DNA of 64,000 bases from Kiritimatiellia bacterium (GTDB lineage: Bacteria; Verrucomicrobiota; Kiritimatiellia; CAIVKH01), in contig DAOLCW010000002.1 in NCBI GenBank assembly GCA_035327665.1, positions 3,237 through 67,236 on the forward strand, written 5' to 3'. The notes under the pieces are model-generated. The model saw only the letters and a program-made list of their open reading frames with translations. It did no database searches and had not been told where the DNA came from. Below are positions 6,441-64,000 of this stretch, in pieces. Both the position numbers and the translations under genes were made by a program. Numbering within the stretch: the stretch's first letter is position 1; the number at the start of each line of letters is the position of its first letter.

Positions 6441-7481
<1,041 letters not shown>

Positions 7482-10728: not shown

Positions 10729-11834
10729 GTCTGATTCGCTTTGACGCAATACGCCGAATCGACCCGCTTTTCCTCCTGGGGATTCTAGCGCTTGTCGTGG
10801 TTGGTTTCTTCTTTGTCTATAGCGCCTCCTATCGGGGGGATGAAGATACCTTGACCACGATGACCCGGCTCCAGATCCGCTGGGCTTCGCTTGGCCTCAT
10901 CCTCTTCCTGCTTACGGTGAAGACCGACTACCGCAATCTTCAGGGTACAGCTCCTTTGATCTATTTTCTTTGCCTGGTGCTTTTGGTTCTCGTGCTGGTC
11001 ATGGGAGTGAAGATCTCCGGGGCCTACCGATGGTTAAGCCTGATGGGGGTTCGTATCCAGCCGTCTGAATTCGCCAAGCTGGGGGTCTTGCTCATGCTTG
11101 CGGCCTACCTTGGCCAGCCGGGGCGCGATATGCGTTCGGTCAAAACGCTGGTCACGGTGCTGCTACTAGCCGGAATCCCCTTCGCATTGATCCTCCAGCA
11201 GCCGGATCTGGGAACGGCGATGATGCTGGTCCCCATGGCCTTTGTGATGTTGTTCATTGCCGGGGTGCCCATCCGGTACCTTTTGGTTATGGTGGGAATC
11301 GGCATCCTGCTCATGCCCTTGGGATGGTTCCTGCTTGATGATTATCAGCATGAACGCATCCTCGTCTTTTTCGATCCTGGACGAGACCCTCGAGGCGCGG
11401 GCTGGAATAAAATTCAGTCGGAGATCGCGGTGGGTTCGGGTGGTTTGACCGGGAAAGGATTCCTCATGGGAACCCAGAACATTCTCGGGTTTCTGCCCCG
11501 GACGGTGGCTCCGACCGATTTTATTTTTTCCGTGATCGCCGAAGAGGCAGGCTTTCTTGGAAGTGTTGGGGTGATTCTTCTTTACGCGGTTTTGCTGACG
11601 CGCGGATTACGCGCGGGAATCCGTTCCCGCGATGTCTTCGGCCGGTTGCTGTGCGCGGGAATGGTCACCTTGTTGTTTGGACATGTCTTCGTCAATATGG
11701 CGATGACCATCGGGCTGATGCCGATCACCGGCTTGCCCTTGCCCCTGATCAGTTACGGAGGCTCGTTCATGATTTGCACCATGATCGGCCTGGGTTTAAT
11801 TCAAAGTGTATATGCGCGGCGGTTGCCGCGTTAA
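10725..11834 (+). CDS. rodA: SEDS-family peptidoglycan polymerase RodA
   Basis: FtsW/RodA/SpoVE 10-TM architecture, immediately downstream of mrdA with 4-nt overlap. Confidence 0.85.
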   Translation: MSLIRFDAIRRIDPLFLLGILALVVVGFFFVYSASYRGDEDTLTTMTRLQIRWASLGLILFLLTVKTDYRNLQGTAPLIYFLCLVLLVLVLVMGVKISGAYRWLSLMGVRIQPSEFAKLGVLLMLAAYLGQPGRDMRSVKTLVTVLLLAGIPFALILQQPDLGTAMMLVPMAFVMLFIAGVPIRYLLVMVGIGILLMPLGWFLLDDYQHERILVFFDPGRDPRGAGWNKIQSEIAVGSGGLTGKGFLMGTQNILGFLPRTVAPTDFIFSVIAEEAGFLGSVGVILLYAVLLTRGLRAGIRSRDVFGRLLCAGMVTLLFGHVFVNMAMTIGLMPITGLPLPLISYGGSFMICTMIGLGLIQSVYARRLPR

Positions 11835-11849
11835 GAAAGGAGAAATAAC

Positions 11850-13445
11850 ATGTGGGAGTTCGTAAAAAACCTCGCCCGCAAGAAGATCAAAAAGGAAATC
11901 ATCATCAACAAGGAGTCGCTTCAGACCCGGGTGGTGGTGCTTGAAGAAGGCAAACTCGAGGATTTCTTCATCGAACGTTCGTCGGAAGACCGTATCGTGG
12001 GAAGCATCTTCAAGGGGCGCATTCAGAACCTTGAAGACGGCCTTCAGGCCGCGTTCATCGATCTTGGCCTCAAAAAGAATGCCTTTGTGCATTACTGGGA
12101 CATGATTCCCGAGGATGCCGCCCGTTTGGAAGCGGAGGAGGGGGTGGATTTGCGTCGAGCCAGTCGCCGCCGGAAGATTTCCTCGGAAGAAATTGCCAAG
12201 CGATTTCCGGTCGGTTCGGAAATCATCGTTCAGGTCACCAAGGGAGCCATCGGGACCAAAGGTCCGCGGGTCACTGCGAACCTGAGCGTTCCCGGTCGTT
12301 ATCTGGTCATGATGCCGGGCTCCACGCTCAAGGGAGTCTCCCGCAAGATTGAGGATGCCAAGGAGCGGGATCGCTTGAAAAAGGTTCTCGCGCGGCTTCC
12401 GCTGCCTTCCGGCAACGGGATTATCGTGCGTACCGCGGGAGCGAAAGCCCGCAAAGTCAGTTTTGTGCGGGACATTCGCGCTCTTACTGAGATCTGGCAG
12501 GACATCGAGGCAGGCATGCGGGACAAGCCCGCTCCGGCCCGATTGTATCAGGAACCGGATCTGGTCGAGCGCACCGTGCGCGACCTGTTGACCGAGGACA
12601 TCGACCGGATTGTCGTCGACTCCAAGGACGAGGCCAACCGGATCAAGATGATCATCGCCAAATTTCACCGCCGTTCCCGTTGCCGGGTTCAGACGTATGA
12701 TGGCGAGGCGTCCATTTTCGAGCACTTCGACATTGAGCGGCAGTTGGAGAATGCATTCAGCCGCAAAGTCTGGCTGAAGAGCGGTGGCTCGTTGATTCTG
12801 GATGAGACCGAAGCTCTGGTTGCCATCGATATCAATACCGGTCGACACAAGGGAGGTGCCAACCAGGAAGAGTCGATCGTGCAGGTGAATCTTGAAGCGG
12901 CCGAGGAAATCGCCCGTCAACTCCGGCTAAGGAATATCGGGGGTCTGGTGGTGATCGACTTTATCGATATGAAGCAAAAGAAAAATCAGAATCTGGTTTA
13001 TCGAAGCTTTAAGGATTATCTCCAGAAGGACAAGGCACGGACCAACGTGCTTCCCTTGTCGTCGCTCGGCCTCATGGAAATGACCCGGCAACGTCAGGAA
13101 GAGAGTGTTCGAGCATCGACCTACATGAATTGTCCGTACTGTGAAGGCCGGGGCAAAGTGATGTCGGCGATGAGCATGAGTGTGGAAGTGCAACGGCGGA
13201 TCGGCGAGGTCATGCGTCGGCATCGGGGAACGGTCGAAAAGCCGTTGCCACTAAAGATTGCCGTGAACCCGCTTGTGTTGGAAAGGCTCCGCAGCGAAGA
13301 TGAGACGATTCTCGTCGAACTCGAGTCGAAATTCCATGGTCGTCTCTCCTTCGTATCCTCTCAGAACCTTCATGTGGAGGAGTTCCTGATTCAGCATGGC
13401 GAAACCAACGAGGAACTGTTTTCAAATGTAGAGCGGAAGACGTAA
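11850..13445 (+). CDS. rng: ribonuclease G (RNase E/G family)
   Basis: S1 domain RIVGSIFKGRIQN, catalytic LVAIDINTG, zinc-link CPYCEGRG; 531 aa (too short for RNase E). Confidence 0.8.
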   Translation: MWEFVKNLARKKIKKEIIINKESLQTRVVVLEEGKLEDFFIERSSEDRIVGSIFKGRIQNLEDGLQAAFIDLGLKKNAFVHYWDMIPEDAARLEAEEGVDLRRASRRRKISSEEIAKRFPVGSEIIVQVTKGAIGTKGPRVTANLSVPGRYLVMMPGSTLKGVSRKIEDAKERDRLKKVLARLPLPSGNGIIVRTAGAKARKVSFVRDIRALTEIWQDIEAGMRDKPAPARLYQEPDLVERTVRDLLTEDIDRIVVDSKDEANRIKMIIAKFHRRSRCRVQTYDGEASIFEHFDIERQLENAFSRKVWLKSGGSLILDETEALVAIDINTGRHKGGANQEESIVQVNLEAAEEIARQLRLRNIGGLVVIDFIDMKQKKNQNLVYRSFKDYLQKDKARTNVLPLSSLGLMEMTRQRQEESVRASTYMNCPYCEGRGKVMSAMSMSVEVQRRIGEVMRRHRGTVEKPLPLKIAVNPLVLERLRSEDETILVELESKFHGRLSFVSSQNLHVEEFLIQHGETNEELFSNVERKT

Positions 13446-13485
13446 CTGGACGTCCACGGTCACAAAAGCGCTTTACATTCAAGGA

Positions 13486-15879
13486 TTGCCGGGGTTTCAT
13501 CATCAGGTGAACCAACCCCGGCCATTCTTTTTTACCGCGTCGGGAAGCATCCTTCAGGCGGTGTGGTGCCTTGGTCTTGTCGCATGGAGTCATCTTGCGT
13601 ACCCAGCCATGCCTTCCCCGGAGGATTGGCGGGATATCACCATCTACCAAATCTTTACCGACCGGTTTCATGACGGAGATCCTTCCAATAATCATCTCTC
13701 CCCTTCGGTCTTCAATCCTACGGATTCAAGACGAATTCACGGAGGAGACTTCCGGGGGATCGAACAGAAGCTCGATTACATCAAGGCTCTGGGTGCGGAT
13801 GCGATTTGGATTTCGCCGATACCTTTAAATGTCGGTCATTCGGCGTACCATGGCTACGGGGCGCATGACTTTTATACCCTCTCCCCGCACTGGGGGACCA
13901 TGGCCGACCTTCGGAGCATGGTTTCCAATGCCCATGTCCGGGGGATTTATGTCATCCTCGACATTGTCACCAATCACAAGGGCGACCGCATTGGTGCCAA
14001 CCTGAATACCGGTTATCCTGCCTACAATCCATCCGGTTACCCCCTGCGATGGTGGACTTCCACGCAATACCCGCCCCCGTTCGATCAACTTGACCATTTT
14101 CACAACTTTGGTGAAATCCAAAACCTGTGGTATGACCCCCCGCAAATACTCGGCGAATTGATGGGGCTCGATGATCTCAAGACGGAGACCGAACATGTTC
14201 GCACCAACATGATCGCGATCTATTCGCATTGGATTGAACAGGGTGGTTTCGATGGGTTCCGGATCGATACGGTCAAACATGTCGAGATGGGTTTCTGGCA
14301 GGTGTTTAATCCGGCGATCCGGGAGTTTGCCGCGTCCCTCGGTAAAACCAATTTTTTTCAGTTCGGAGAGGTGTACGACGGTTCCGATGCCAAATGCGGA
14401 TCCTACACAGGGACGCAGGCGGGCGGTCCCTACGCGAATGATTCGGTCCTTGATTTTCCCTTGTACTTTCAGATCAACGATGTATTCGCCCGGGCCACCG
14501 CCCCGACCATGCGTATTCGCGACCGCTACCATCAGTTGGATCACTACCATCCGGATGCCCGGGACCGGCTCGTGACCTTTCTCGATAATCATGATTTTCC
14601 ACGTTTCATGAACGCGGCCAATGCCAACAACAATACGGCCCGCCTGCACGTTGCGACGACCTTTCTCTACACATCCCGGGGAATACCCAGCCTCTATTAC
14701 GGTACCGAACAGAACTTCAATGGAGGCCATGACCCTCAGAACCGGGAAAACATGTTCGATGGGCAATTCCCGGCCACCGGTCCCTCGGTGGGCGACCGCT
14801 TTGATATGACCGAAACCACCTTTCAACACATTGCGCGTTTGACTAATTTCCGTCGTCTCTACCCCGCGCTTCGAAGGGGGACCCACCATAACTTATGGCA
14901 CAATCCGGATGGTCCGGGTCTTTTCGCCTATGCGCGGCGACTCGAGGATCAGGAAGTTTTTGTCATGATGAACACCTCTCCCACACCCCAGCAACTTGCG
15001 GCCCGGCCAACCATGTATCCGCCCGGCACCCGGCTGGTGAACCTGCTTAACACCCAGGAAATCGTCACGGTCACCGGAGGAAATGATGGCATTCCTCCCA
15101 TCCCAATCGCTGGAACCACATCGAAAATCTTCATTGCGGAATCGTATTGGCAACCATTGAATCCGGTGGTCGTCCGACAAGCTCCCGCCCATGCAGGAGG
15201 CGGGGTGCCATGGCACGGGGGAGTCACGCTGGATTTCAGCCAACCCATGGAGACCAACGCAACTCAATCAGCGTTTTCGATTTACCCTCCCATGACGGGA
15301 TCTTTCCTTTGGTCTTCGGACCGAATGCGAATGACCTTTGTTCCCTCACTCCCGGGATTGCCCACGAACCAGCGGGTTGACTATCGCGTCGGTACGGAAG
15401 CGTTTTCGGATGCGACGGGTCAATCCATCCATGGCGGATTCGAATCTTTTTTCACGGTGGAAACCGTGAGCGGAAATCCCGCGTTGCCTGCCGACGGGCT
15501 TCCAGGGTGGTGGCGCATGCATTCGTTTGGGACCCTGGAGGTATCGCTACAAACGTCAACGCGAGCGGAGGATGATTTCGACGGCGACGGACTCTCAAAT
15601 CTTGAAGAATTTATCGCCGGCACCGATCCCGCGAATCCAGCATCCTTCCTGAAGGTTGACGATATCTACACGGGATCGGATGTCCATTTGGCCTTTCCCA
15701 CCCGTTCAGACCGATGGTACCGGGTGCTTTTCGCCGATGGTTTGGAAGGGGTTCAACACTGGGAACCGTTAAGCGAGTGGACGGAAGGAACCGGAGGTCG
15801 GAACATCCTTCTCGATGATGAACCCATGTCCCTGCGGGCCTACCGGCTTGAGGTCGGGGTCGAACCTTCCGCTCCCTGA
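13486..15879 (+). CDS. secreted GH13 alpha-amylase-family glycoside hydrolase with C-terminal TSP3-like Ca-binding repeat
   Basis: GFDGFRIDTVKHV (nucleophile Asp), GEVYDG (acid/base Glu), FLDNHD; DDFDGDGLSNLEEFIAGTDPANP near C-terminus; N-terminal hydrophobic signal. Confidence 0.8.
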   Translation: MPGFHHQVNQPRPFFFTASGSILQAVWCLGLVAWSHLAYPAMPSPEDWRDITIYQIFTDRFHDGDPSNNHLSPSVFNPTDSRRIHGGDFRGIEQKLDYIKALGADAIWISPIPLNVGHSAYHGYGAHDFYTLSPHWGTMADLRSMVSNAHVRGIYVILDIVTNHKGDRIGANLNTGYPAYNPSGYPLRWWTSTQYPPPFDQLDHFHNFGEIQNLWYDPPQILGELMGLDDLKTETEHVRTNMIAIYSHWIEQGGFDGFRIDTVKHVEMGFWQVFNPAIREFAASLGKTNFFQFGEVYDGSDAKCGSYTGTQAGGPYANDSVLDFPLYFQINDVFARATAPTMRIRDRYHQLDHYHPDARDRLVTFLDNHDFPRFMNAANANNNTARLHVATTFLYTSRGIPSLYYGTEQNFNGGHDPQNRENMFDGQFPATGPSVGDRFDMTETTFQHIARLTNFRRLYPALRRGTHHNLWHNPDGPGLFAYARRLEDQEVFVMMNTSPTPQQLAARPTMYPPGTRLVNLLNTQEIVTVTGGNDGIPPIPIAGTTSKIFIAESYWQPLNPVVVRQAPAHAGGGVPWHGGVTLDFSQPMETNATQSAFSIYPPMTGSFLWSSDRMRMTFVPSLPGLPTNQRVDYRVGTEAFSDATGQSIHGGFESFFTVETVSGNPALPADGLPGWWRMHSFGTLEVSLQTSTRAEDDFDGDGLSNLEEFIAGTDPANPASFLKVDDIYTGSDVHLAFPTRSDRWYRVLFADGLEGVQHWEPLSEWTEGTGGRNILLDDEPMSLRAYRLEVGVEPSAP

Positions 15880-21156: not shown

Positions 21157-22367
21157 GGAATTACCGCTGGATACCAACCCGGGAGGCAGGACTCAGGGCG
21201 CTTTCCGAATTCCTGCCTCGAGCCGGGCGCGACTACGCGAGGGATCGAAATACCGACTACGGTCCATCCGACCGCAGGAACGTGTCCTGCCTTTCACCAT
21301 GGATACGATGCCGGGCGATCACGGAAGAAGAGGTGATTCGGGCAACGCTGGCCCGGCATGACTTCGCCGCCGCTGAAGCTTTTGCGCAGGAGGTCTGCTG
21401 GAGAACCTACTGGAAGGGCTGGCTGGAAATGCGTCCGGCGGTTTGGACACGATATGAATCCGCCGTGAGGGAAAGCGCGGGGCGACGGGAGTCGTGTCCA
21501 CGGTATCGTGAGGCCGTCGAAGGGCGCACCGGCATCCCCTGCTTTGATGCGTTCGTCATCGAGCTCAGGGAAACCGGCTACCTTCATAATCATGCCCGGA
21601 TGTGGTTTGCCAGTATCTGGATCTTTACCCTCGACCTGCGGTGGGAATGGGGGGCCGATTTTTTTCTCCGCCATCTTCTCGACGGCGATCCGGCCTCCAA
21701 CACCCTGAGCTGGCGATGGGTTGGAGGATTGCAAACGTCCGGAAAATTTTATGCGGCCACTCCAGACAACATCCGCCGGTTCACGTCCGGGCGGTTCCCC
21801 CATCCGGGGGAGTTGAAGATCCCCTCCGGCCCATTGGTTGAGATCGATTCTCTGCCCACCCCCCGCAACTTGCCGGCCCGCGGTCTAGAACCGCCACGGG
21901 AACCGGTCGGGGCGTTGCTTACCGAGGACGACGTCTCGGGGTGGCGGTGGATTGCCGGGTTGTATCCCGTCTGTGCTCTCGCCGGGTTGGTCCCTCGCGA
22001 GGCGTATCAGCGCCGCAAGGTGGAGGCGAAGGTCCTATCGTTCCGGGAAGCGTTGATGGGCGATGCTCTGAATTCGGGAATGGCTGAAGGACTTGCCTCC
22101 CATTTCCTTGACGTAGGGGATCCCGATGCCGCGGTGGAATGGGCCATGGGCGCGAAACTTAAAACGGTGGTGATGATTGAACCTGCGGTCGGTTACTGGG
22201 ACCGGATCAAGCCTGATCTGCAAAACGGCCTTGCCGCCGCCGGGATCGAACTCGTTTGGCTAAGGCGGCCATGGGATGATCAGTTGCATCCCCATGCGAC
22301 CGCCGGATTTTTCCGGTTCAAGAAGCGCCTGCCCGGACTTGCCGAAACGATCATGGGAAGGCCATAA
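21153..22367 (+). CDS. cryptochrome/photolyase FAD-binding-domain protein lacking the canonical N-terminal alpha/beta domain, with ~170-aa C-terminal extension
   Basis: LSPWIRCRAI (cf. LSPYLHFG), LHNHARMWFASIWIFTLDLRWEWGADFFLRHLLDGDPASNTLSWRWVGG (cf. MHNRxRMxxASFLxKxLxIDWRxGxxxFxxxLxDxDxAxNxxxWQWxAG). Confidence 0.6.
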   Translation: MRNYRWIPTREAGLRALSEFLPRAGRDYARDRNTDYGPSDRRNVSCLSPWIRCRAITEEEVIRATLARHDFAAAEAFAQEVCWRTYWKGWLEMRPAVWTRYESAVRESAGRRESCPRYREAVEGRTGIPCFDAFVIELRETGYLHNHARMWFASIWIFTLDLRWEWGADFFLRHLLDGDPASNTLSWRWVGGLQTSGKFYAATPDNIRRFTSGRFPHPGELKIPSGPLVEIDSLPTPRNLPARGLEPPREPVGALLTEDDVSGWRWIAGLYPVCALAGLVPREAYQRRKVEAKVLSFREALMGDALNSGMAEGLASHFLDVGDPDAAVEWAMGAKLKTVVMIEPAVGYWDRIKPDLQNGLAAAGIELVWLRRPWDDQLHPHATAGFFRFKKRLPGLAETIMGRP

Positions 22368-51558: not shown

Positions 51559-53010
51559 GTGGTTTTTATGTCCTCGTTACGTGGTTGCAGTGTAGTGCTG
51601 ATCCAGCCGCCGGACCCGGTTCCTGCGGCCACAGCGGTTGATTCCGGTGGAGGCGTATCCCTGCGCTTTTCTCCACCGTGGGATTTGCTCTGCCTTCGCG
51701 CCTTTCTTCTTAACCGGACCAGCCACCCCTGCCGGATTGTCGATACCCGCCTATTCGACCAATTCGAAACCAAGCTGAAGGATGCGTTGCGGGATATTGC
51801 TAAACCCGCTGTGGCGGTCATTCCCGTGCAGACCACCGGTCTGGGCGAGGCCAGCGCGGTGATTGATGTACTTCATCGCAACTATCCGGACATGCTGATC
51901 GTGACCTGCGGGCAGCACCCCTCAGACTTTCCCGAACTTGCCTTGAGTCTGCCCCATGTGCGCTATGCGCTCTGCGGCGATCCCGAGCCAATCCTCCGCA
52001 ACCTGCTTGATTACCACGATATCGAACGGCGCCTCCATCTGACGCCCGGATTGGCCTCTGCGGGAAATCCGGTACCTCAACCCTATTGGTTGCCCGACCT
52101 TCGCAGCCTTAACGTGGCAGACTGGACTCACCTCGACTGGGCGGGCTATGCCTCGGCCAGTCCGGCTGGCCTCCGGGCCGACATCCGGCTTTCCCGCGGC
52201 CACCCCCGATCTCCCGCCGATGTTGCCTCTGGCCAATCCGCTCAGCCCCTCCGCGAGTGGCCCCTCGATCGGGCGGCTGCGATGATCCAGCGATGCGCCC
52301 ATCATGGAATTGTGGAAGTGTTTCTCGGCGATTCCCCCGGTTATTGGACCGAGCAGCGACTCATCGCGTGGTCAAAGCAACTGATCACCCTCCGCTCCAC
52401 CCAAGCGTGGTCCGCTCAAATCCTGCCCCGGATGCTTAGTGAAAACGCCTTGAATTTCCTCTTCGACAGTCGCTGCCGGCGCATGGAAATCCTCTTCCCT
52501 TCCTGCGATCCGGAACGCCTGAAAACGGCCGGTGCCCTCCATGAACCAGCCAAAATCGCCGCCGCCATCGCCACGATTCGCAAGGCCAACATCGATGTGA
52601 ACCTGCGCTTCTGGGTCGGCGGCCCCCACGAGCGCCCCCGGGAGCGGGATCGAATTCTCGCCATGATCCGTCTGCTCGACGACTGCCCCTACTTTCTCTA
52701 TCCCTACCCTTACGAACCGACCGCTCCGGTTTTCCAAACCGAAGATTCGCCGGTTCTCGCCTCGGCAGGAATTCAACAATGGTTGAGCTGGGCCAAGGAA
52801 CCATGGCTTGCCGAGCGTCCGACGGCATTCTGGTCCGGCAAAGAAGGCGCAGATGCCTGCCAGCAGGTCATTCTTGATGTTCAACGCAAAGTCCACTTGA
52901 ACCCCGGCCGGCGCTTGCGCAAGACCCTTCGCCACCTCCGTTCGATCGATTGGATCGTGGCGTGGGAGCGAAGGGCCCTCGCCTTGTTCGCCAAACGCTT
53001 GGAAAGCTAG
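51559..53010 (+). CDS. B12-binding-domain / radical-SAM-like protein apparently lacking the CxxxCxxC cluster motif (hypothetical)
   Basis: N-terminus VVLIQPP...PPWDLLCLRAFLL...RIVDTR resembles B12-binding domain of class B rSAMs; position of Cys motif reads LSRGHPRSPAD. Confidence 0.4.
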   Translation: MVFMSSLRGCSVVLIQPPDPVPAATAVDSGGGVSLRFSPPWDLLCLRAFLLNRTSHPCRIVDTRLFDQFETKLKDALRDIAKPAVAVIPVQTTGLGEASAVIDVLHRNYPDMLIVTCGQHPSDFPELALSLPHVRYALCGDPEPILRNLLDYHDIERRLHLTPGLASAGNPVPQPYWLPDLRSLNVADWTHLDWAGYASASPAGLRADIRLSRGHPRSPADVASGQSAQPLREWPLDRAAAMIQRCAHHGIVEVFLGDSPGYWTEQRLIAWSKQLITLRSTQAWSAQILPRMLSENALNFLFDSRCRRMEILFPSCDPERLKTAGALHEPAKIAAAIATIRKANIDVNLRFWVGGPHERPRERDRILAMIRLLDDCPYFLYPYPYEPTAPVFQTEDSPVLASAGIQQWLSWAKEPWLAERPTAFWSGKEGADACQQVILDVQRKVHLNPGRRLRKTLRHLRSIDWIVAWERRALALFAKRLES

Positions 53011-55183: not shown

Positions 55184-55987
55184 ATGATTGAAAAAGGCGC
55201 AACGTATGTGGTGATGGGCTTGCTGGATCCAGACTCCATCGCGTATTCCGTCGGACGGGACATCCAGAAGTATGGCGGCAAGGTCATCTACACCGCCCAG
55301 AACGAAAGGCTCAAATCCATCTTCTTCGACCGCAGCAAAAAACTCACCGAGGGAGAAAAAGAAAACATCATCATCGAGTATTGCGATGTGACCAAAGAAG
55401 AGGAAGTCGCCGCCCTCTTCGCAAAAATCGGACCTGTGGCCGGGGTCGTCCATTCCATCGGCTACGGCAATCCCAAAACGTGCCTCGGACAGGAGTTCCA
55501 TACCGATGCCGTGGAAGACTTGAAATTATCCTACCATATCAGTTGTGTCTCCTTCGCTACCGTGGCCCGCCATGCCGCCCCCTACATGAAGCACGGCGGA
55601 TCGCTTGTGACCCTGACCTTCGAATCGGCAAAGGCCTTCGCCTACTACAACTGGATGGGTGTGAACAAGGCCGCCCTCGAAGCCCTTACCCGCGGCATGG
55701 CCCGCCGCCACGGCAAGGATCTCATCCGGGTCAATGCCGTTTCTGCCGGCCCCTTGACCACCAAAGCCGCCAGCTCCATCCCCGGGTTCAGCGAACTCGC
55801 CCACACCTGGAACAAACAAAGCGCCCTCCCCTGGGACATCATCAACGACAAGGACGAAGTCGCCCATGCCGTACTTTTCCTTCTCGGACCCTACTCGAAG
55901 AAAATCACCGGCCAAACCATCTATGTCGACGGTGGCGCGTCCGTCATCGGTGGCGAACTGCTCCCTTTTGAGCGTGCGGGCGGCTGA
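55184..55987 (+). CDS. fabI: enoyl-[acyl-carrier-protein] reductase FabI-like (ORF track start 55073 trimmed to ATG 55184 with AGGAAGGA RBS)
   Basis: YVVMGLLDPDSIAYSVG (cf. LIMGVANxRSIAWGI), Y-x6-K (YNWMGVNK), 267 aa. Confidence 0.75.
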   Translation: MIEKGATYVVMGLLDPDSIAYSVGRDIQKYGGKVIYTAQNERLKSIFFDRSKKLTEGEKENIIIEYCDVTKEEEVAALFAKIGPVAGVVHSIGYGNPKTCLGQEFHTDAVEDLKLSYHISCVSFATVARHAAPYMKHGGSLVTLTFESAKAFAYYNWMGVNKAALEALTRGMARRHGKDLIRVNAVSAGPLTTKAASSIPGFSELAHTWNKQSALPWDIINDKDEVAHAVLFLLGPYSKKITGQTIYVDGGASVIGGELLPFERAGG

Positions 55988-56010
55988 TTCGATCCGCTCG
56001 TTCCCGGGAA

Positions 56011-56050
56011 CCGTCCGGCATGAGGCCGGACGGTTAGAATCGCTTTATTC
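56011..56050 (+). terminator. rho-independent terminator after fabI
   Basis: CCGTCCGGC-ATGAG-GCCGGACGG perfect 9-bp stem followed by TTAGAATCGCTTTATTC. Confidence 0.55.
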
Positions 56051-56077
56051 GACAACCTGTGGCCCCCACCGGAACCT

Positions 56078-56968
56078 TTGGCCATGATCGATTGGATCTG
56101 GCGGCAGATCGGCGTGTCCCTCCCTCCCGACTGGGAAATGCTACAATTCTCCCGCGAATCGAAGCGCGGCCGATGCGCCTTCGCTGACCGACGCCGCTTT
56201 CGCTTCGAGCTCAACTGGCATGCTTTTGCGGCGGAACCCGACTTCGACCGGATGATGACGGACTACGCATCCACCCTCGATGCGAATTGGCACGACATCC
56301 AATCCCTCCGGTGTGCCGGATGGCCCGGACTCACCGGTCGAAGAGAACATGAAATCGTCTCCCGTTTCGGACGTTATTTCCCCCTGATTGGCGTTCTCGT
56401 GGAAGCTGTGGTCATCCATCCCGAGACCCGCGATTCCGAACTCGAATCCCGGATTTTGGGTTCCATACGTCCCGTACCGGTTGATCCTGAAGGATATCAA
56501 CGCTGGCGAACCTTCGGCATGGACCTCAAGGTCCCCGCATCTTTTTCCTTCGCCGAGTCACAAGTCCAACCCGCCCGGTGCGGTTTGCTCTTTCAGTCCG
56601 ACAAAGGACCCGACCGATGGATCTTTCGCCGATATGGCATGCTTAAATCCTGGTTGAAAACACCCCTGCGCGAATGGCTGGAATCCCAAACCGACCCCGC
56701 CGTTCGCTACCGTAGGCTTGAAAGTGGCCTCATCCACACAATCCCCGTTGAGCGCGTTCATGGTGAATGGCGACCTCGTGGCCTACTCTTGAAAAAGGGA
56801 CTGTATGCCGCCTCGGCATGGATCGACCCACGCGATCAGCGCCTCTATCATGTGCAATGCATCACCTCAAAATCCAACCACGCCTTTCACCCTCGCGAAC
56901 GTGCGGAGAAGATCATGGCATCCTGCCCGGAGTTCTTCTCCCTTCCCAAACCCTCGATCGGCAAATGA
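56078..56968 (+). CDS. hypothetical protein, first gene of 6-gene operon (TTG 56078 or ATG 56084)
   Basis: 296-aa ORF, C-ending codon usage, no recognisable motif; stop overlaps next gene start (ATGA). Confidence 0.45.
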   Translation: MAMIDWIWRQIGVSLPPDWEMLQFSRESKRGRCAFADRRRFRFELNWHAFAAEPDFDRMMTDYASTLDANWHDIQSLRCAGWPGLTGRREHEIVSRFGRYFPLIGVLVEAVVIHPETRDSELESRILGSIRPVPVDPEGYQRWRTFGMDLKVPASFSFAESQVQPARCGLLFQSDKGPDRWIFRRYGMLKSWLKTPLREWLESQTDPAVRYRRLESGLIHTIPVERVHGEWRPRGLLLKKGLYAASAWIDPRDQRLYHVQCITSKSNHAFHPRERAEKIMASCPEFFSLPKPSIGK

Positions 56969-57360
56969 AATCCGAACGCACCACCACGTCTGAATTGCCC
57001 GCCTTATGGCAAGATCTGCTTTCCGCCGTTCTCCTTCGCAATCAAGCCGCTGAAGTCCTCGACGAAGCCCCCGACGGCTCGGTCATGCTCGCCGTCCCGA
57101 CCCGCAAGCCCGGCTTCCTGATCCCCCCCTTTTCATGGATCATCCGCCCGCCTCGGGAGCGCCTTACCCACCTCGACCCTATCGGGGCATCCCTGTGGCG
57201 AGCCTGCGATGGACGGGCCACTGTGGAGTCCCTTGTGGAAAAGTTTGCCATTCAGCACAGTTTAACTTTTCATGAGAGCCGTGTTTCTGTTACCTCCTAT
57301 GTCACGTCCTTGCTCCGCCGCGGTGTTCTTGCTGTGGCGGTAGGCACAGGTCAACCTTGA
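56965..57360 (+). CDS. PqqD-family / RiPP-recognition-element (RRE)-like protein
   Basis: ORF track start 56767 trimmed to ATG 56965; ...LDPIGASLWRACDGRATVESLVEKFAIQHSLTFHESRVSVTSYVTSLLRRGVL matches PqqD pattern (LN.tga.iW.lcDG.rtv.eI...l...y.......a..Dv..fl..L...gL). Confidence 0.6.
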   Translation: MKSERTTTSELPALWQDLLSAVLLRNQAAEVLDEAPDGSVMLAVPTRKPGFLIPPFSWIIRPPRERLTHLDPIGASLWRACDGRATVESLVEKFAIQHSLTFHESRVSVTSYVTSLLRRGVLAVAVGTGQP

Positions 57361-57415
57361 AAACCAAGCCTCGGAAAAAGCCCATCCGAATGAATACCAT
57401 CACGAGAATCAAGAT

Positions 57416-59506
57416 GTGACCTTCCGAGCCGTCATTCTGGGACTGCTGGGAGTTGCCTTCGTTAACTCCTACACCTACTTCAACGACTGGATCATGCGCC
57501 AGACCATGTTCGTGGGCAATTTCATGCCCATTTCCGTCTATGGCCTGCTTGTGATCTTCCTTGCTTTCCTCTACCCCCTCCTTTCCAAAATTAGCCGCGC
57601 CCTCCTGCTCCGCCGTTCCGAACTCGCGGTCATTCTCGTCCTCGTCCTCGCCTCCTGCGCGATCCCCGGCTCCAACCTCCTCCGCCTCTTTACCCCCGCC
57701 CTTGTCATGCCCCACCGTTTCGAAAAAACCGAACCGGGCTGGCAAAACCAACGCATCATGGATCTCGTCCCCGACGGCGCCTTTTCCATCGGAGCCGGCA
57801 AGACCGTCCCCTACTCCATGCTCGTCGACGTCTCCCGCGACGAAGAACTCGTACTCAGCGGCTTCACCCGCGGCCTCAGCGAAGCCTCCGACCGCCTCGC
57901 CTTCTCCGAGGTGCCATGGGACGCCTGGCAACCCGCCCTCATCTTCTGGCTCCCCATCATTCTCAGTTTGTGGATCGCCCTCGTCTGCCTTGCCCTCGTC
58001 GTCCATCGACAGTGGGCCGACCACGAGCACCTGCCCTACCCCATCGTCACCTTCACCAAATCCCTCCTCCCCGAGGAAAATGGCGACCGCGGTCCCATCC
58101 TCAGCAGCAAACTCTTCTGGCTCGCCCTCGGCGCCGTCTTCGCCATTCACGGCTACAACTACCTCAACCTCTGGTTCTCCAATTACCTGTTTGGCCAAAT
58201 TCCCCTCGGCATCGACTTCTCCTCCCTCTCCAACCTTTCCGACACCTTTGAAAAAGGCGGCGGACGCCAGCTCCTCGAAAAATTCACCCTCTACTTTACC
58301 GTGGTCGCCGTCGCCTACTTCCTCCCCAAGGAAGTCTCCCTCTCCCTCGGCATCGGCCCCTTTATCTGGATCTTCATCGCCGGCATGTTCGCCACCTACG
58401 GCGTCGGCGTCGGCGGCTGGCAGGGAAGCTGGCCGTTTGGCCTCACCATGGACGCCATGATGATCATGGGCGCCTACTTCGGCATGCTCGTTGTCCTCCT
58501 TTACACCGGCCGCCAATACTATTCCGCCGTGTTCCGCCGGGCCTTCGGCATCCCCTCCCGTGAACCCGTGGAAAGCTCCGCCATCTGGGGCGCCCGCTTC
58601 TTCATGATCGGCATGGCCTTCTTCACCGTGTACTCCGCCCTCGTCGCCGGACTCGACTGGCCCATCGCCCTCCTCTTCGGCCTCGGCCTCGTCGCTGTCT
58701 ACCTTGTCATGGCTCGCCTCCTCGCCGAAACCGGACTCTTCTTCATCGTCACCACCGGCACCCCCGCCACCCTCATCTGGGCCTTCTTCGGAGCCCGCGC
58801 CCTCGGCCCCGAAATCCTCTTCCTCATGTTCATGTTCTGCATCGTGCTCTTCTACGACACCCGCGAAGCCCTCATGCCCTATGTCGTCAACGGCCTCAAA
58901 CTCGCCGACGACTGCAAAGCCAAGGTGGGCCGCACCGCCTTCTTCGTCATCGTCGCCATTTTCGTCGGCCTCGGCGTCGGACTTCCCGTGACCCTCTACT
59001 TCCAATACTCCAACGGCGTCGATGTCTCCCTCTGGAAAATCGAGCAGGCCAAGCGCCCCTTCAACGAGACCATCAGCATCATGCAACGACTCGATGCCCA
59101 GGGCCAACTGGAGGAAGCCGGTCAGGTCACCGGAATCAAGCGCTTCCTCGAAGCTTCCCCCCATCGCAACGGCCTCATCGCCTTCTTCGCCGCCGCCGGG
59201 CTCGTCATCGGATTTTCCTTCCTCCGCCTCCGCTTCACCAACTGGCCGCTCCACCCCGTCATGTTCCTCGTCTGGTCCACCTATGCCGGCGACTCCTTCG
59301 CCCAGTCCTTCCTCGTCGGATGGTTGATCAAGCTCCTCATCACCAAATATGGCGGCATGGGCATCTACCAGAAATGCAAGCCCATCATGTTCGGACTCAT
59401 CGCCGGGGAAATGCTTGGCGGCGTCGTCCCCATGGTCGTCAGCCTCATCTACTACATCACCACCGGCGGCGAGCTGCCCAAACCCTTTGCCATCATGCCC
59501 GGATAA
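57416..59506 (+). CDS. large polytopic integral membrane protein, unknown family (GTG start)
   Basis: 696 aa, more than 12 predicted hydrophobic helices, several W/G/Y-rich loops. Confidence 0.55.
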   Translation: MTFRAVILGLLGVAFVNSYTYFNDWIMRQTMFVGNFMPISVYGLLVIFLAFLYPLLSKISRALLLRRSELAVILVLVLASCAIPGSNLLRLFTPALVMPHRFEKTEPGWQNQRIMDLVPDGAFSIGAGKTVPYSMLVDVSRDEELVLSGFTRGLSEASDRLAFSEVPWDAWQPALIFWLPIILSLWIALVCLALVVHRQWADHEHLPYPIVTFTKSLLPEENGDRGPILSSKLFWLALGAVFAIHGYNYLNLWFSNYLFGQIPLGIDFSSLSNLSDTFEKGGGRQLLEKFTLYFTVVAVAYFLPKEVSLSLGIGPFIWIFIAGMFATYGVGVGGWQGSWPFGLTMDAMMIMGAYFGMLVVLLYTGRQYYSAVFRRAFGIPSREPVESSAIWGARFFMIGMAFFTVYSALVAGLDWPIALLFGLGLVAVYLVMARLLAETGLFFIVTTGTPATLIWAFFGARALGPEILFLMFMFCIVLFYDTREALMPYVVNGLKLADDCKAKVGRTAFFVIVAIFVGLGVGLPVTLYFQYSNGVDVSLWKIEQAKRPFNETISIMQRLDAQGQLEEAGQVTGIKRFLEASPHRNGLIAFFAAAGLVIGFSFLRLRFTNWPLHPVMFLVWSTYAGDSFAQSFLVGWLIKLLITKYGGMGIYQKCKPIMFGLIAGEMLGGVVPMVVSLIYYITTGGELPKPFAIMPG

Positions 59507-59508
59507 CC

Positions 59509-60981
59509 ATGAAGCCCATTGATGTCAAAGAACAACCCATCCTCAGCGCCGGGCGCGTCTTCCAAATCGCCCTCTCCGGCGTCAAATACCGCCTCTTTCG
59601 CGCCGCCGTCACCGTCGCCGTCATCACCGTGGCCATGGCCTTCCTCATGAACATCCTCACCGAGAGCCTCATCAAACGGGCCGTCGCCGACTCCGTCCGC
59701 GAGCAAATCGAGGATCTCCGCACCGTCGACGCCTGGATCGCCAAACTTTCCATCCCTCAGACCACCGAGGAAATCCTCGAACAGATCGCTTCCGTCTCCC
59801 AATCCGAACTCGACCTCCACGAACTCGTCCACATGAGCGGAAAGCCCTCCGAAGCCCTCCTCGCCGCCGAACCCGTCGCCCGCGACGCCCTCTTCTATCT
59901 CCGCTTCTTCAACGACATGAACTTTGGCCGCCGCCGCGTCCTCGTCGGTAGCGCCGAAGCCACCCGGATCTTCGACCACCTCCAAACCCCCGCCGCCTGG
60001 CAAACCTTTACCGCCAACCTCGCCGACATGCACACCATCCGCTTCCCTGCCGCCGTGGAGGACTTCGAAGCCTTCCTCGCCGCCTGGCCTGACCTTCGCT
60101 CCCTCGTCGCCTCCGTTCGCGACGGCCAGGCCCGGGCCATCCGACACGTCCAGCGAAACCTCGGCGACACCCCGCTCGCTCAAGCCCTCCGCGCCGCCGA
60201 CGGCCCCTTCGGCGAAGTCCTCCGCGAGGCAGGCTTCGCCCTCTCCGAACGTCAGGCCGCCACCCTCTCCACCGAAGTCGAACGCCTCGAAGCCATCCAG
60301 CGCATCGAAGGCACCATTAACAACCCCGGCATCCGCCAGGCCGTTGCCGCCGACCGCGATGTCCTCCCCGGCGACGTCTCCATGCAACTCATCTGGGGAC
60401 TCCTTCGCCAACGCGACCGCAGCGAGTGGTTCTACGACCTCATGGCCGAGCATGGCCTCAACGTCGATCAACTTTCCCCCCAACGCATCGAGGAACTCGC
60501 CGCCCATCAAGGCCACGTTCGCCTCCTCAAAATCGCCGAACGCCAGACCACCGGGGCTGGCGGCGGCTTCATGGACATCGGACCCCGCATGACCTGGCTC
60601 GCCATGGTCTCCATGCTCGTCTGCGCCGTCGGCATCACCAACGCCATGCTTATGTCCGTCACCGAACGCTTCCGCGAAATCGCCACCCTGAAATGCCTCG
60701 GCGCCCTCGATGGCTTCATCATGGTCGTCTTCCTCATCGAAGCCGGCATCCTCGGCATCGTCGGCGGCATCGGCGGGGCCATCATCGGACTCCTCCTCGG
60801 CTTCGTCCGCATGCTCTTCACCTTCCAAAGCCTCGCCTTCAACGCCTTCCCCCTCACCCAACTCCTATACGCCGGACTCATCTCCATCGGTCTCGGCATG
60901 ATCCTCGCCGCCGTCGCCGCCGTGTACCCGTCCATGCGGGCCGCCCGGCTCGCTCCCATGGAGGCCATGCGCATCGAATGA
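59509..60981 (+). CDS. FtsX-family (type VII ABC / MacB-LolC-like) permease with single N-terminal TM, ~340-aa extracytoplasmic alpha-helical domain, then 3-TM FtsX domain
   Basis: ORF track start 59320 trimmed to ATG 59509; C-terminus ...MSVTERFREIATLKCLGALDGFI...YPSMRAARLAPMEAMRIE is canonical FtsX. Confidence 0.75.
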   Translation: MKPIDVKEQPILSAGRVFQIALSGVKYRLFRAAVTVAVITVAMAFLMNILTESLIKRAVADSVREQIEDLRTVDAWIAKLSIPQTTEEILEQIASVSQSELDLHELVHMSGKPSEALLAAEPVARDALFYLRFFNDMNFGRRRVLVGSAEATRIFDHLQTPAAWQTFTANLADMHTIRFPAAVEDFEAFLAAWPDLRSLVASVRDGQARAIRHVQRNLGDTPLAQALRAADGPFGEVLREAGFALSERQAATLSTEVERLEAIQRIEGTINNPGIRQAVAADRDVLPGDVSMQLIWGLLRQRDRSEWFYDLMAEHGLNVDQLSPQRIEELAAHQGHVRLLKIAERQTTGAGGGFMDIGPRMTWLAMVSMLVCAVGITNAMLMSVTERFREIATLKCLGALDGFIMVVFLIEAGILGIVGGIGGAIIGLLLGFVRMLFTFQSLAFNAFPLTQLLYAGLISIGLGMILAAVAAVYPSMRAARLAPMEAMRIE

Positions 60982-61745
60982 CCGCCACCCTTCCAGCCTC
61001 CCCGACCATCGATCCGGCCACCTCCCAGCGCGTGATCATCCGCACCGTCGGCATGAAGAAGATCTACCGCCGCGGCGAGGAAATCACCCATGCCCTTCGC
61101 GGCGTCGATGTCGAAATCTACACCGGCGAATTCATCACCGTCATGGGCCCCTCCGGCTCCGGAAAGAGTACCTTCTTCAACATGATCGGCGCTCTCGACA
61201 GCCCCTCCGAAGGCCGCGTCTTCATCGATGAAGTCGATGTCGCCCAACTGACCGCCGAGGAACTCGCCTTCCTCCGGTGCCGCAAGATCGGCTACATCTT
61301 CCAGTCCTACAACCTCATCCAATACATGACCGCCCTTGAAAACGTCACCACCCCCATGGCCTTCGGCGGCGTCTCCCCCGACGTCGCCCGCGGACGCGGC
61401 ATGGATCTGCTCGACCTCGTCGGCCTCAAGCCCCGCTGGTTCCACCGCCCCATCGAAATGTCCGGCGGCCAGCAGCAGCGCGTCGCCATCGCCCGCGCCC
61501 TTGCCAACCAACCCTCCATCCTCCTTTGCGACGAGCCCACCGCCAACCTCGACCACCGCACCGGCGACGAAATCCTCGATATTCTCCAGAAGCTCAACAA
61601 GGAACGCGGCGTGACCATCATTTGCGCAACCCATGACCACCGCATGATGAACATCTGCGACCGCCTCATGTGGATACGCGACGGCGGCATCGAACGCATC
61701 GCCCGCCGCGACGAAGTTCAAGTGGAGGTCGGCAGCATTGAGTGA
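60978..61745 (+). CDS. ABC transporter ATP-binding protein, MacB/LolD/FtsE-type
   Basis: ATGA overlap with FtsX gene; Walker A GPSGSGKST, Q-loop, signature MSGGQQQRVAIARAL, Walker B ILLCDEPTANLD, H-loop ATHD. Confidence 0.85.
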   Translation: MTATLPASPTIDPATSQRVIIRTVGMKKIYRRGEEITHALRGVDVEIYTGEFITVMGPSGSGKSTFFNMIGALDSPSEGRVFIDEVDVAQLTAEELAFLRCRKIGYIFQSYNLIQYMTALENVTTPMAFGGVSPDVARGRGMDLLDLVGLKPRWFHRPIEMSGGQQQRVAIARALANQPSILLCDEPTANLDHRTGDEILDILQKLNKERGVTIICATHDHRMMNICDRLMWIRDGGIERIARRDEVQVEVGSIE

Positions 61746-64000
61746 CCTCCTCTCCAACCTCACCGCCGCCCGCCTGTTCCTCGTCGCCGGGATCTGGCTT
61801 GCCGCCGTCGCCCCCGCATCCGCCTCCCTCCGCGCGGATGTCGAAGCCCTCACCCGTCATCCCCACCGCTTAAGCGGCACCCCCGAATACGCCGCCGCCG
61901 CCGATCACGTCGAGCAGCGCCTTCGCGACATCGGAATCACCAACCTCGTCGTTCAGGAATTCCCCTCCGTCCAAAACAAAATCCTCCGGGCTGAACTTGT
62001 CGCCGGCGAAACCACCTTCCCCCTCGTCCCCGCCCGACCCAACGGCATCATCCCCCCCACCACCCCGCCCGCAGGCATCACCGGCGAACTCATCGACCTC
62101 GGCGACGCCACCGACGACGACCTCAACCGCATCAACGTCCATGGCCGCATCGTCGTCATGTCCTACAACGCCCACATGCAGTGGTACAAAGCCTTCCGCC
62201 TCGGCGCCCGCGCCGTCATCTTCACCGATGGCCACGAAGGCGACTCCCTCCACCAACACTACCTCCGCGTCAATGCCAACCTCCCCCGCTATTACTACGA
62301 GGGCGACCGCGCCAGCCTCCCCTTCGGCCAGACCGTAACCCTCCATTCCGAAGTCACCTGGCAACGAACCACCGGCCGCAACATCATCGCCTTCCTTCCC
62401 GGAACCGACCCCGTCTTCGACCTCGGTCGCGAAGAAGTGGTCATCATCGCCGCCAACCTCGACACCTTCGGCGACTTCCCCGCCGCCTCCCCCGGCGCCC
62501 GCTCCGCCGCCAACGTCGCCGGCCTCCTCCACCTTGCCGAAACCTTCAAGAACAATCCCCCCCGCCGCCACATCGTCCTCGCCTTCTTCGACAACCAAGC
62601 CCGCTCCCATGCCGGAGCCATCGCCTTCTACTGGGCCCTCGAAAACCGCATCCCCGAAGCCACCATCGCCGCCCGCCTCGAATCCTGGCAGGCCGAAGTC
62701 GAATTCCTCGCCAACATCAGCGCCATCCTCGCCCAATCCAACCCCCTCGAGCACCTCGCCATGCCCGGCGGACGCCGCCTCGACGACCGCCTCAACGACA
62801 AGGCCCGCGACCTCGCCCTCGACCTTCGCGGACGCCTCATGCAAATGCGCGAAGCCTACCTCGCCCACGCCGAGGACCACCCCGATGACGAAACCCGCCG
62901 CCAGCAGCTCCGCCTCGACATCGAAACCGCCGAAGCCGAATTCGACCTCTGGAACGACCTGCGCCGGGCCCTTCGCCGGGCCCGCGGCATCCCTCCCGAA
63001 CTCCAGCCCCAGCTCGACCGCGTCATCCAATCCGTCCGCGACGACGTCGCCCGCCGCCAGCAGGAACTCCGCGACACCGAATCCATGCTCCTTTCCTCCA
63101 AGCGCATCTTTGACCTCCTCGGCGATCGCTGGATCACCCTCCACACCTCGCTTATCCTCGGCGACAGCACCGCCCGCTGGGGCGTCATCATCGGCGGCGA
63201 CTCGGAAATCCGCAACGCCGACCTCGACCAGCCCGGCCTCTACGGCCGCGTCCAGCAAAGTTTCCTTCGCGCCTTCGACGCCCAAGTCCGGGCCGGCCAG
63301 CCCGCCCGCAATTTCGAACGGGCCACCGTCGACGCCACCCTCACCCAGCCCCGCCTCATCTGGGCCGCCCGCGGCCTCATCCACAGCGGTGAAGTCTCCG
63401 GCCGCTACGGCATCTACAACATCGTCCTCGGCACCACCCACGAAACCCTCCCTCGCGAAGGCACCCCCGCCGACACCCTCGACCAGCTCGACCTCGATCG
63501 CATCGAAACCAAAATCCGCGAAATCGGCGGCATCATGACCGCCCTCGGCAACCTCAACGCCCAGGTCGGCGAGGTCGAAGCCGTCGCCGACCAGCGCGGC
63601 CTTTCCCTCCGCCGGGTCATCGGCACCGACTACTCCTACATCAACCCCCGCTTCCGCAACCAGGTCAGCGAAGGCGCCATGGCCATGGGTCGCCATCGCG
63701 GCAGCTCCATCCCCAACCTCCCCGTCCGAAATGCCGTCATTCAGGTCAACATGGTCCAGCCCTGGAACCGCATCATCTGGCCCCACAACAAATACCCCGC
63801 CTTCGATCCCTTCCAGGTCATCATGACCGACCAAAACGGCTCCTACACCATCGGCGGCCTCGCCAAGCAGGACTCATGGCCCCAGCCCACCGCCTTCGCC
63901 GCCCGCTTCAATGCCCGCGGCGTCCCCTTTGAAGTCTCCGACATGCGGTCCGTCAACTCCCTCCGCACCCGCATCAACATGGTCCGGGCCCGCGGCGGCT
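61738..64000 (+). CDS. secreted PA-domain M28-family homologue with degenerate metal-ligand motifs (pseudo-peptidase) and long helical C-terminal region; 3' end beyond window; TTG start tentative
   Basis: not in ORF track (no in-window stop). Signal peptide LFLVAGIWLAAVAPASA; PA-like GRIVVMSYNAHMQWYKAFRLGARAVIFTD; M28 motif positions read AANLDT / GARSAANVAGL / FFDNQ. Confidence 0.6.
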   Translation, partial: MSDLLSNLTAARLFLVAGIWLAAVAPASASLRADVEALTRHPHRLSGTPEYAAAADHVEQRLRDIGITNLVVQEFPSVQNKILRAELVAGETTFPLVPARPNGIIPPTTPPAGITGELIDLGDATDDDLNRINVHGRIVVMSYNAHMQWYKAFRLGARAVIFTDGHEGDSLHQHYLRVNANLPRYYYEGDRASLPFGQTVTLHSEVTWQRTTGRNIIAFLPGTDPVFDLGREEVVIIAANLDTFGDFPAASPGARSAANVAGLLHLAETFKNNPPRRHIVLAFFDNQARSHAGAIAFYWALENRIPEATIAARLESWQAEVEFLANISAILAQSNPLEHLAMPGGRRLDDRLNDKARDLALDLRGRLMQMREAYLAHAEDHPDDETRRQQLRLDIETAEAEFDLWNDLRRALRRARGIPPELQPQLDRVIQSVRDDVARRQQELRDTESMLLSSKRIFDLLGDRWITLHTSLILGDSTARWGVIIGGDSEIRNADLDQPGLYGRVQQSFLRAFDAQVRAGQPARNFERATVDATLTQPRLIWAARGLIHSGEVSGRYGIYNIVLGTTHETLPREGTPADTLDQLDLDRIETKIREIGGIMTALGNLNAQVGEVEAVADQRGLSLRRVIGTDYSYINPRFRNQVSEGAMAMGRHRGSSIPNLPVRNAVIQVNMVQPWNRIIWPHNKYPAFDPFQVIMTDQNGSYTIGGLAKQDSWPQPTAFAARFNARGVPFEVSDMRSVNSLRTRINMVRARGG

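Follow-up and report, generated by a model that had tools for sequence, protein, structure and literature searches.

What is encoded by the tightly packed genes that close this stretch of Kiritimatiellia DNA, and do they belong to a known envelope system? The window (64,000 nucleotides of contig DAOLCW010000002.1, assembly GCA_035327665.1, positions 3,237 to 67,236) holds six plus-strand open reading frames (ORFs) between 56,078 and 64,000, here called g1 to g6, the last of which is cut by the window end. Proteins P0001 and P0130, 100% identical to their window counterparts, come from a Kiritimatiellia metagenome-assembled genome, the source of this DNA. Their products include a permease and an ATPase of the type VII ATP-binding cassette (ABC) kind, whose members MacB, LolCDE, FtsEX and BceAB serve as the model of how bacteria transmit mechanical force across their inner membrane. 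An earlier reading of this DNA, the original prediction, had described a unit of six genes in which a single FtsX permease and its ATPase act on a separate, secreted pseudo-peptidase. Related loci show a larger system. As judged by sequence comparison the unit has eight genes, and the window carries g1 to g5 and the first 47% of g6. It is made of three pairs of paralogues, of the OPT fold (g3 and g7), of the FtsX family (g4 and g6) and of ABC ATPases (g5 and g8), together with a cytoplasmic pair (g1 and g2). This architecture is very probable. The reading of its function preferred here, a fully heteromeric mechanotransducer of the type VII ABC kind that is coupled to carriers of the OPT fold and probably moves peptides, has about an even chance (roughly 0.5) of being right.

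Gene content and order of the unit

Coordinates are those of ORFs read within 56,078–64,000 of the 64-kb window:

56084–56968, plus strand: g1, 294 aa, cytoplasmic, tandem Mog1/PsbP-like domains
56965–57360, plus strand: g2, 131-aa PqqD/RRE-like peptide-binding protein (PF05402)
57416–59506, plus strand: g3, 696-aa polytopic membrane protein, DUF6785/DUF6784, OPT/Yellow-Stripe fold
59509–60981, plus strand: g4, 490-aa FtsX-type permease (PF02687)
60978–61745, plus strand: g5, 255-aa ABC ATPase of the LolD/MacB/FtsE type (PF00005)
61738–64000, plus strand: 5' part of g6, first 754 codons (~47%) of ~1,600, still open at 64000
61828–62667, plus strand: PA domain and first half of an M28 aminopeptidase-like (nicastrin-like) module in g6, from a profile search

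The six ORF calls agree with those of the original prediction and the junctions read as it described. An ATGA overlap at 56965 couples g2 translationally to g1, the stop codon of g3 ends at 59506 and is separated by 2 nt from the ATG of g4 at 59509, and a second ATGA overlap at 60978 joins g4 to g5. The TTG start of g6 at 61738, with GGAGG 8 nt ahead of it, overlaps the g5 stop (61743–61745), the two genes sharing 8 nt. For g1, the ATG at 56084 is a more likely start than the TTG at 56078, as it fits the orthologues better.

Do these genes stay together elsewhere? A profile of DUF6785, the family of g3, run on one genome per species, found 260 relatives; 80 loci among these were retained, and their gene content was read by tblastn with the six window proteins. 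The window gene set co-occurs in all Kiritimatiellia loci. It is also found in Sumerlaeia (L039), Brocadiia (L041, L044), Victivallales (L047), other Planctomycetota (L049), metagenome-assembled genomes (MAGs) of the Planctomycetes–Verrucomicrobia–Chlamydiae (PVC) group (L059, L068) and Opitutales (L077, L078), and several of the loci outside Kiritimatiellia have the shuffled order g3-g1-g2-g4-g5-g6. The neighbourhood check that the original prediction had proposed is thereby done, and it finds the set conserved with its order partly shuffled.

What lies beyond g6? In all 31 loci with room for it, the gene directly 3' of g6 is g7, a canonical OPT gene (PF03169, ~662 aa) with 52–100% identity to the query copy from locus L009. 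A second ABC ATPase gene, g8, lies directly 3' of g7 in 18 of 21 loci; the three exceptions (L082, L019, L020) have a gene for a 23S rRNA intervening-sequence protein (PF05635) between g7 and the ABC gene. The Victivallales locus carries all eight genes in the order g2-g4-g5-g6-g7-g8-g3-g1, and in L084 the cluster ends after g8. Across phyla, conservation is far higher in g5, g7 and g8 than in g1, g4 and g6 (31–67% identity). The Kiritimatiellia order, g1 and g2 followed by g3-g4-g5 and then g6-g7-g8, looks like an old duplication of an OPT–FtsX–ATPase triad. The proposal of a single unit thus stands as regards its tight packing and shared order, and its count of six gives way to eight, an OPT gene and an ABC ATPase gene following g6 in related loci.

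Two features are local. The PF05635 insertion between g7 and g8 belongs to one Kiritimatiellia clade; in L082, the one annotated exception, it occupies 21433–21969 and the ABC gene comes after it. An Acido-Lenti-1 RNA motif (Rfam RF01687, 47.5 bits) lies on the minus strand at 6983–7028 of the Planctomycetota locus L049, in the g5–g6 spacer.

Could the cluster simply be two or three independent transport systems, proton-coupled OPT importers beside an unrelated ABC exporter, that are merely co-located or co-regulated? DUF6785 proteins do occur alone, and in all cases known to us OPT proteins work without ATPases. However, the eight genes are together in at least five phylum- or class-level lineages despite reordering, their spacing is tight or overlapping, and the pattern of three paralogue pairs is hard to explain by chance co-location. 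A mere neighbourhood of unrelated transporters is therefore very unlikely.

A second, giant FtsX-family permease

Is the last gene of the window that of a secreted protein? The part of g6 past position 64000 in the source genome is taken here from its orthologues, which are 1,575–1,690 aa long in every locus with enough sequence. Judged by them, g6 does not encode a soluble secreted protein but a second permease of the FtsX family, a giant one of about 1,600 aa. Among 12 orthologues, Pfam finds an FtsX domain at residues ~1360–1470 in all 12 and an M28 domain in 7; in 2 of the 12 the second loop weakly matches the MacB periplasmic core (MacB_PCD, E 0.01–0.045). By hydropathy, the orthologues begin with a signal or anchor segment and an outer region of ~920 aa, which are followed by three transmembrane (TM) helices at ~947–1025, one at ~1075–1093, a loop of ~260 aa, three more helices at ~1357–1464 and a cytoplasmic tail of ~160 aa. 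Conservation is highest in the TM region and the tail. When the 754 residues of the window part were used for an exhaustive HMMER search, 155 cluster representatives were found at E ≤ 1e-30, and the non-fragment relatives among them are mostly 1,550–1,900 aa long.

The original prediction missed the second permease because the window ends inside gene 6. Its soluble secreted protein turns out to continue into seven further TM helices and an FtsX domain, the long helical tail that it described is an internal segment of a ~1,600-aa protein, and the single permease without a LolE paralogue becomes one of two.

In L084 (a contig of 2.96 Mb) g6 is split or frameshifted into a 1,047-aa piece with the outer region and three TM helices (10001–13144) and a 669-aa FtsX piece (13108–15117), with a 37-nt overlap at the boundary of the two halves. 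Several g6 relatives of ~900–1,050 aa from the HMMER search may be such a split form or fragments at contig ends.

What is the outer region of g6? The Pfam M28 match in the window copy is marginal (residues 215–297, 21.6 bits against a cutoff of 21.3) and a direct sequence search of the Protein Data Bank (PDB) with the window part of g6 gave no match. A profile of the 12 orthologues does match over residues 31–310, to 2ek8 (E 1.3e-10), YwaD (6hc6, 3.6e-7) and nicastrin (5a63, 2.8e-4). Active M28 metallopeptidases bind co-catalytic zinc through His, a bridging Asp, Glu-Glu, a second Asp/Glu and His. In the 12 orthologues the first three of these positions, which are those that could be aligned, are replaced: HxD reads N/P/G-L-D, GAxDD reads GARGAAN and EE reads QA, EA or KA, the ligand His being kept only in the Sumerlaeia protein. 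The substitutions noticed in the window copy are thus a family trait, and the PA/M28-like module is predicted to be catalytically dead across the family. Like nicastrin of gamma-secretase, 2ek8 and YwaD, g6 has a membrane-anchored M28-like ectodomain, here without metal ligands and likely to bind or gate substrate. It differs from nicastrin in sitting on an ABC permease and not in an intramembrane protease complex, and its sequence reveals no more than the first half of the M28 fold.

Does this resemble FtsEX with EnvC, or the PcsB and RipC systems, as the original prediction proposed? There, a single FtsX/FtsE pair would activate a separate secreted dead M28 protein by mechanotransmission. 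A type VII ABC module and a dead peptidase-fold module outside the membrane are both real features of this unit. But the module has the M28/PA fold, not M23/LytM or CHAP, and in the orthologues it is the N-terminal part of a ~1,600-aa membrane protein with its own FtsX unit and seven further TM helices, covalently within the permease; the lengths of the 155 representatives speak against a separate form. There are two permeases and two ATPases, and equivalog scores are far under the cutoffs: 197.8 bits against 264.85 for FtsE with g5, and 20–30 bits against 225–255 for the FtsX models of NCBIfam. No separate secreted coiled-coil partner, divisome context or hydrolase gene belongs to the unit. 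An FtsEX-like arrangement is extremely improbable here, and the g6 module, being an integral ectodomain, follows the logic of nicastrin more than that of EnvC.

The membrane core of g6 has relatives of its own. In the L009 protein, residues 948–1515 (the three TM helices plus the FtsX unit) match the PADLOC model PDLC01991, CARF_m8--CARF_LolE_TM, with E 3.8e-57. On this match the 3-TM-plus-FtsX core is a reusable module common to CARF-fused proteins. It differs from those in context: no CARF domain was detected in g6, and CRISPR or defence genes are absent around it. PADLOC made no defence assignment for the unit, finding generic ATPase matches and the core match only, among housekeeping neighbours. 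The ~160-aa tail that follows the core occupies the same relative position as the unmatched 215-position C-terminal end of PDLC01991, where the CARF domain is assumed to lie; no family was detected for the g6 tail.

The permease g4 and the two ATPases

Pfam and NCBIfam scans upheld the predicted PqqD, FtsX, ATPase and M28-like domains. In g4, the Pfam match is confined to the FtsX C-terminal domain (PF02687, E 9e-14). TM prediction gives one helix, a helical outer domain of ~310 aa and then TM2–4. In a PDB profile search only residues 324–490, the TM2–4 part, match MacB, LolF, LolC, YtrF or FtsX, and the outer domain (residues 50–360) matches no solved Lol or MacB domain. The FtsX unit is common to g4 and g6 (hhalign probability 93.7%).

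The ATPase g5 (PF00005, E 2.5e-30) is of the LolD/FtsE/MacB type and falls below every NCBIfam equivalog cutoff. No other gene in the window part is as well conserved, its identity to the window copy being 70–95% across phyla. g8 shares 50% identity with g5, and in both of them the Walker A, signature, Walker B and H-loop motifs are intact; by sequence the two are paralogues. Their top NCBIfam match is LolD (TIGR02211), with 214.8 bits for g5 and 238.9 for g8 against a cutoff of 307.75, and the best ATPase matches include the exporters LolD, DevA, MacB and the darobactin exporter DarD.

Is the unit then a divergent Lol-like system that takes lipoproteins, or some other envelope component with a lipid anchor, out of the inner membrane of PVC-type diderms? 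The likeness to the type VII LolCDE of E. coli is considerable. Two different, paralogous FtsX permeases flank a MacB/LolD-type ATPase in the order of lolC-lolD-lolE (g4-g5-g6, with g8 as an extra), no membrane-fusion protein is involved, and mechanotransmission at the outer face of the inner membrane is expected. LolD is the top match of both ATPases, which are very highly conserved, the neighbourhood is one of housekeeping genes, and LolF and LolC are among the PDB matches. Yet all LolC/E and LolD models score below cutoff, lolCE (TIGR02212) with 44.3 bits against 362.45. The outer domain of g4 is all-helical and has no match to the Porter/Sabre domain with its LolA hook, for which g6 offers only the weak MacB_PCD match. 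LolCDE also lacks an equivalent of the ~1,600-aa g6 with its dead PA/M28 outer region, three extra TM helices and cytoplasmic tail, and the two different ATPases, two OPT-fold proteins and PqqD/Mog1-like pair have no Lol role. Moreover, many DUF6785 proteins of Lentisphaerae stand without ABC genes, so that the cluster may not be universal there. A Lol-like function is quite unlikely.

Exporters of the MacAB-TolC, PvdRT, DevBCA and DarBCD type share with the unit the FtsX unit and the type of nucleotide-binding domain (NBD), and the weak MacB-like core in the second loop of g6. Here the NBD is unfused, the system heteromeric, and a membrane-fusion protein or outer-membrane factor is lacking. 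No membrane-fusion protein is found among the called genes of the two annotated loci (L082, L084) or the window ORFs, in line with the original prediction, and no outer-membrane factor among the called genes of those two loci. The unit clearly belongs to the type VII ABC kind, though outside FtsEX-EnvC, LolCDE and MacAB-TolC. As the original prediction held, it is not a described system: it fails the curated LolCDE, MacB and FtsEX cutoffs, and no publication on the eight-gene unit was found. Literature searches on DUF6785/DUF6784, on FtsX with PqqD, M28 or nicastrin, on OPT with FtsX in PVC taxa and on CARF with LolE found nothing relevant.

Two OPT-fold proteins

For the original prediction, the 696-aa membrane protein had no counterpart. 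Pfam assigns DUF6785 (E 2.5e-75) and DUF6784 (E 2e-20) to g3 and does not assign OPT (PF03169). Fold comparison shows that g3 has the fold of the OPT/YSL (Yellow-Stripe) transporters (TC 2.A.67), the reference structure being barley Yellow Stripe 1 (7wsr), and its counterpart g7 in the same cluster is a canonical OPT protein. Sequence does not reveal g3 as an OPT protein: its comparison by hhalign with one OPT protein of the cluster gave a probability below 1%, not significant, and a PDB profile search with g3 found no match. The kinship is thus beyond the reach of sequence detection and is settled by fold comparison only. We know of no OPT member genetically tied to an ABC system.

DUF6785 proteins have a life outside the unit. 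Many Lentisphaerae and Planctomycetota have several free-standing paralogues per genome without ABC genes (L083, L085, L086, and others among L045–L076), beside genes for a PL8 polysaccharide lyase, heparinase II/III, sulfatases, GlcNAc 2-epimerase, sugar oxidoreductases and GntR regulators. This OPT-fold family may serve polysaccharide degraders as an importer of glycan products. In a neighbour-joining tree, ABC-linked and free-standing members are not cleanly split outside Kiritimatiellia and Opitutales.

Five DUF6785 variants of 915–932 aa (P0080, P0081, P0085, P0094, P0103) were considered as fusions with g1 and rejected as such, their extra length being a partly helical insertion of ~250 aa in the loop after g3 residue 113. 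In the Brocadiia locus L041, tandem DUF6785 genes (10001–12022 and 12079–14100) are followed by g4-g5-g6-g7, with no g1 or g2 nearby; L044 apparently has the same layout, going by a merged ORF call of 1,413 aa.

The cytoplasmic pair g1 and g2

What do the two small cytoplasmic proteins do? g1 has no Pfam or NCBIfam match and a PDB profile search with it found none; it is a new family of tandem Mog1/PsbP-like domains, a non-enzymatic binding fold that also includes Eag-type secretion chaperones. In g2, Pfam finds a PqqD domain (PF05402, E 1.7e-7, 31.9 bits against a cutoff of 23.4), while all NCBIfam PqqD-type equivalogs are below cutoff. g2 stays adjacent to g1 in loci of several phyla, and P0178, a 418-aa protein from a Verrucomicrobia MAG, is a natural fusion of the g1 family with PqqD, which argues that g1 and g2 act as one unit.

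The pair raises the possibility of export. g1 and g2 would bind the leader of a peptide, of a ribosomally synthesised and post-translationally modified peptide (RiPP) or of a lipopeptide in the cytoplasm, the OPT-fold protein would bring it to the periplasmic side and the MacB-like module would expel it or hand it on. The domain of g2 is that of the RiPP recognition element (RRE), the Mog1/PsbP fold counts secretion chaperones among its members, exporters stand among the best ATPase matches, and MacB-type systems act on periplasmic or outer-leaflet substrates. A precursor gene or modifying enzyme was not seen, however: the ~96 nt upstream of g1 hold no small conserved ORF, nor does the short sequence at hand downstream of g8; no RRE-dependent modifying enzyme lies beside g2, the fold of g1 being non-enzymatic. 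The lack of a membrane-fusion protein and outer-membrane factor in L082 and L084 and the housekeeping surroundings also speak against export, as does the fact that characterised OPT members are importers. Export is unlikely, if less so than the other alternatives.

How might the unit work?

The preferred reading remains that of a mechanotransducer coupled to OPT-fold carriers. g4, g6, g5 and g8 would form one fully heteromeric type VII ABC mechanotransducer, in which ATP hydrolysis would move the large outer domains, as in MacB and LolCDE. But how would a substrate cross the membrane? MacB-type membrane domains have no channel through it. For this reason the path across the inner membrane is assigned to the OPT-fold proteins and the ABC part is taken as the ATP-driven mover, g3 and g7 probably pairing as a heterodimer. 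Yellow Stripe 1 is likewise dimeric, as a homodimer, and an elevator mechanism has been proposed for it (PMC9691689). The pseudo-aminopeptidase would be the receptor outside, the OPT proteins the carriers in the membrane and the PqqD/Mog1-like pair the binder inside. Since the pseudo-aminopeptidase, the OPT family and PqqD are all peptide-related, the cargo may be oligopeptides or a peptide-like oligomer. It would preferably be captured outside and brought inward, with g1 and g2 receiving it or feeding back on the ATPases. The least secure steps are substrate and direction, the inward direction being only weakly preferred, and as a whole the mechanism in this form is tentative and rather doubtful.

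In favour of the preferred reading stand the invariable position of g7 after g6 (31 of 31 loci), the synteny kept despite reordering and the paralogue pairs in three families. Several observations weigh against it. The eight products need not form one complex, and the stoichiometry could instead be that of two homodimeric transporters working separately, one of g4 and g5, the other of g6 and g8. Characterised MacB-type systems extract or expel substrates and do not import them, and export would also be favoured by the PqqD/RRE domain, whose best-known setting is RiPP maturation. With free-standing DUF6785 genes lying among polysaccharide-degradation genes, proteins of this fold may carry something other than peptides. 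The Brocadiia loci have no g1 or g2 beside the cluster, so the adaptor pair is not universal, and the case for a dead receptor domain covers the first three M28 ligand positions, the last two not being alignable.

Is there any precedent for ATPases that drive such carriers? In a bolder version of the coupling, the ABC module would directly energise elevator-type OPT-fold carriers as a new class of ATP-driven transporter resembling the energy-coupling factor (ECF) transporters, the free-standing DUF6785 proteins would be exchangeable, substrate-specific carriers sharing one energiser, and the role of outer receptor would fall to the dead PA/M28 ectodomain. ECF transporters also combine two different ATPases and coupling subunits with elevator or toppling carriers, and have scattered carrier paralogues near catabolic genes. 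Their membrane parts are not homologous to those of the unit, and the comparison is one of analogy only. This version is decidedly improbable.

Surroundings of the unit

Upstream, two features adjoin the unit:

55184–55987: fabI-like gene, adjoining the unit upstream, matching adh_short_C2
56008–56035 (approximate), plus strand: terminator-like hairpin, a 10-bp inverted repeat ACCGTCCGGC...GCCGGACGGT, 3' of the fabI-like gene

The hairpin marks the 5' boundary of the unit, and the region upstream of g1 is only ~96 nt long. A promoter and terminator consensus scan gave no signal above background, and an Rfam scan found no riboswitch near the cluster. The upstream neighbours are genes for RNase R, lepB, lepA, a GDP-mannose pyrophosphorylase-like gene, trpA, coaX, uvrB, a methyltransferase, speA and fabI. 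The flanking genes in the window are housekeeping genes and the unit is not on an island. The plus strand of 56000–64000 has a strong excess of C over G (GC skew −0.25 to −0.38, GC 60–68%), which gives rise to very long spurious ORFs on the minus strand, such as 57302–59254 and 61870–63834 (650 and 654 aa among the examples); these antisense ORFs are treated as artefacts. Further upstream, a 483-aa plus-strand ORF at 51559–53010, divergent from speA, has a sub-threshold match to a B12-binding domain (23.1 bits against a cutoff of 32.1) and is not kept beside the cluster in other loci.

What the unit means for its carriers

With these results, DUF6785 and DUF6784 gain a fold assignment, hence a likely transporter role, and a new family is defined for g1. 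The results also suggest that, in PVC bacteria that degrade polysaccharides, a main route of uptake is through OPT-fold proteins. To our knowledge there is no precedent for a heteromeric type VII ABC system combined with a nicastrin-like dead ectodomain, two OPT-fold transporters and a PqqD/Mog1-like pair. Carriers of the unit are mostly uncultured; its architecture is well supported by comparative data and its function is inferred. Should the ABC module power or gate the OPT-fold carriers, the principle of transport would be new. If it does not, the unit is still a conserved envelope system, and probably an important one, in phyla that genetics has hardly reached.

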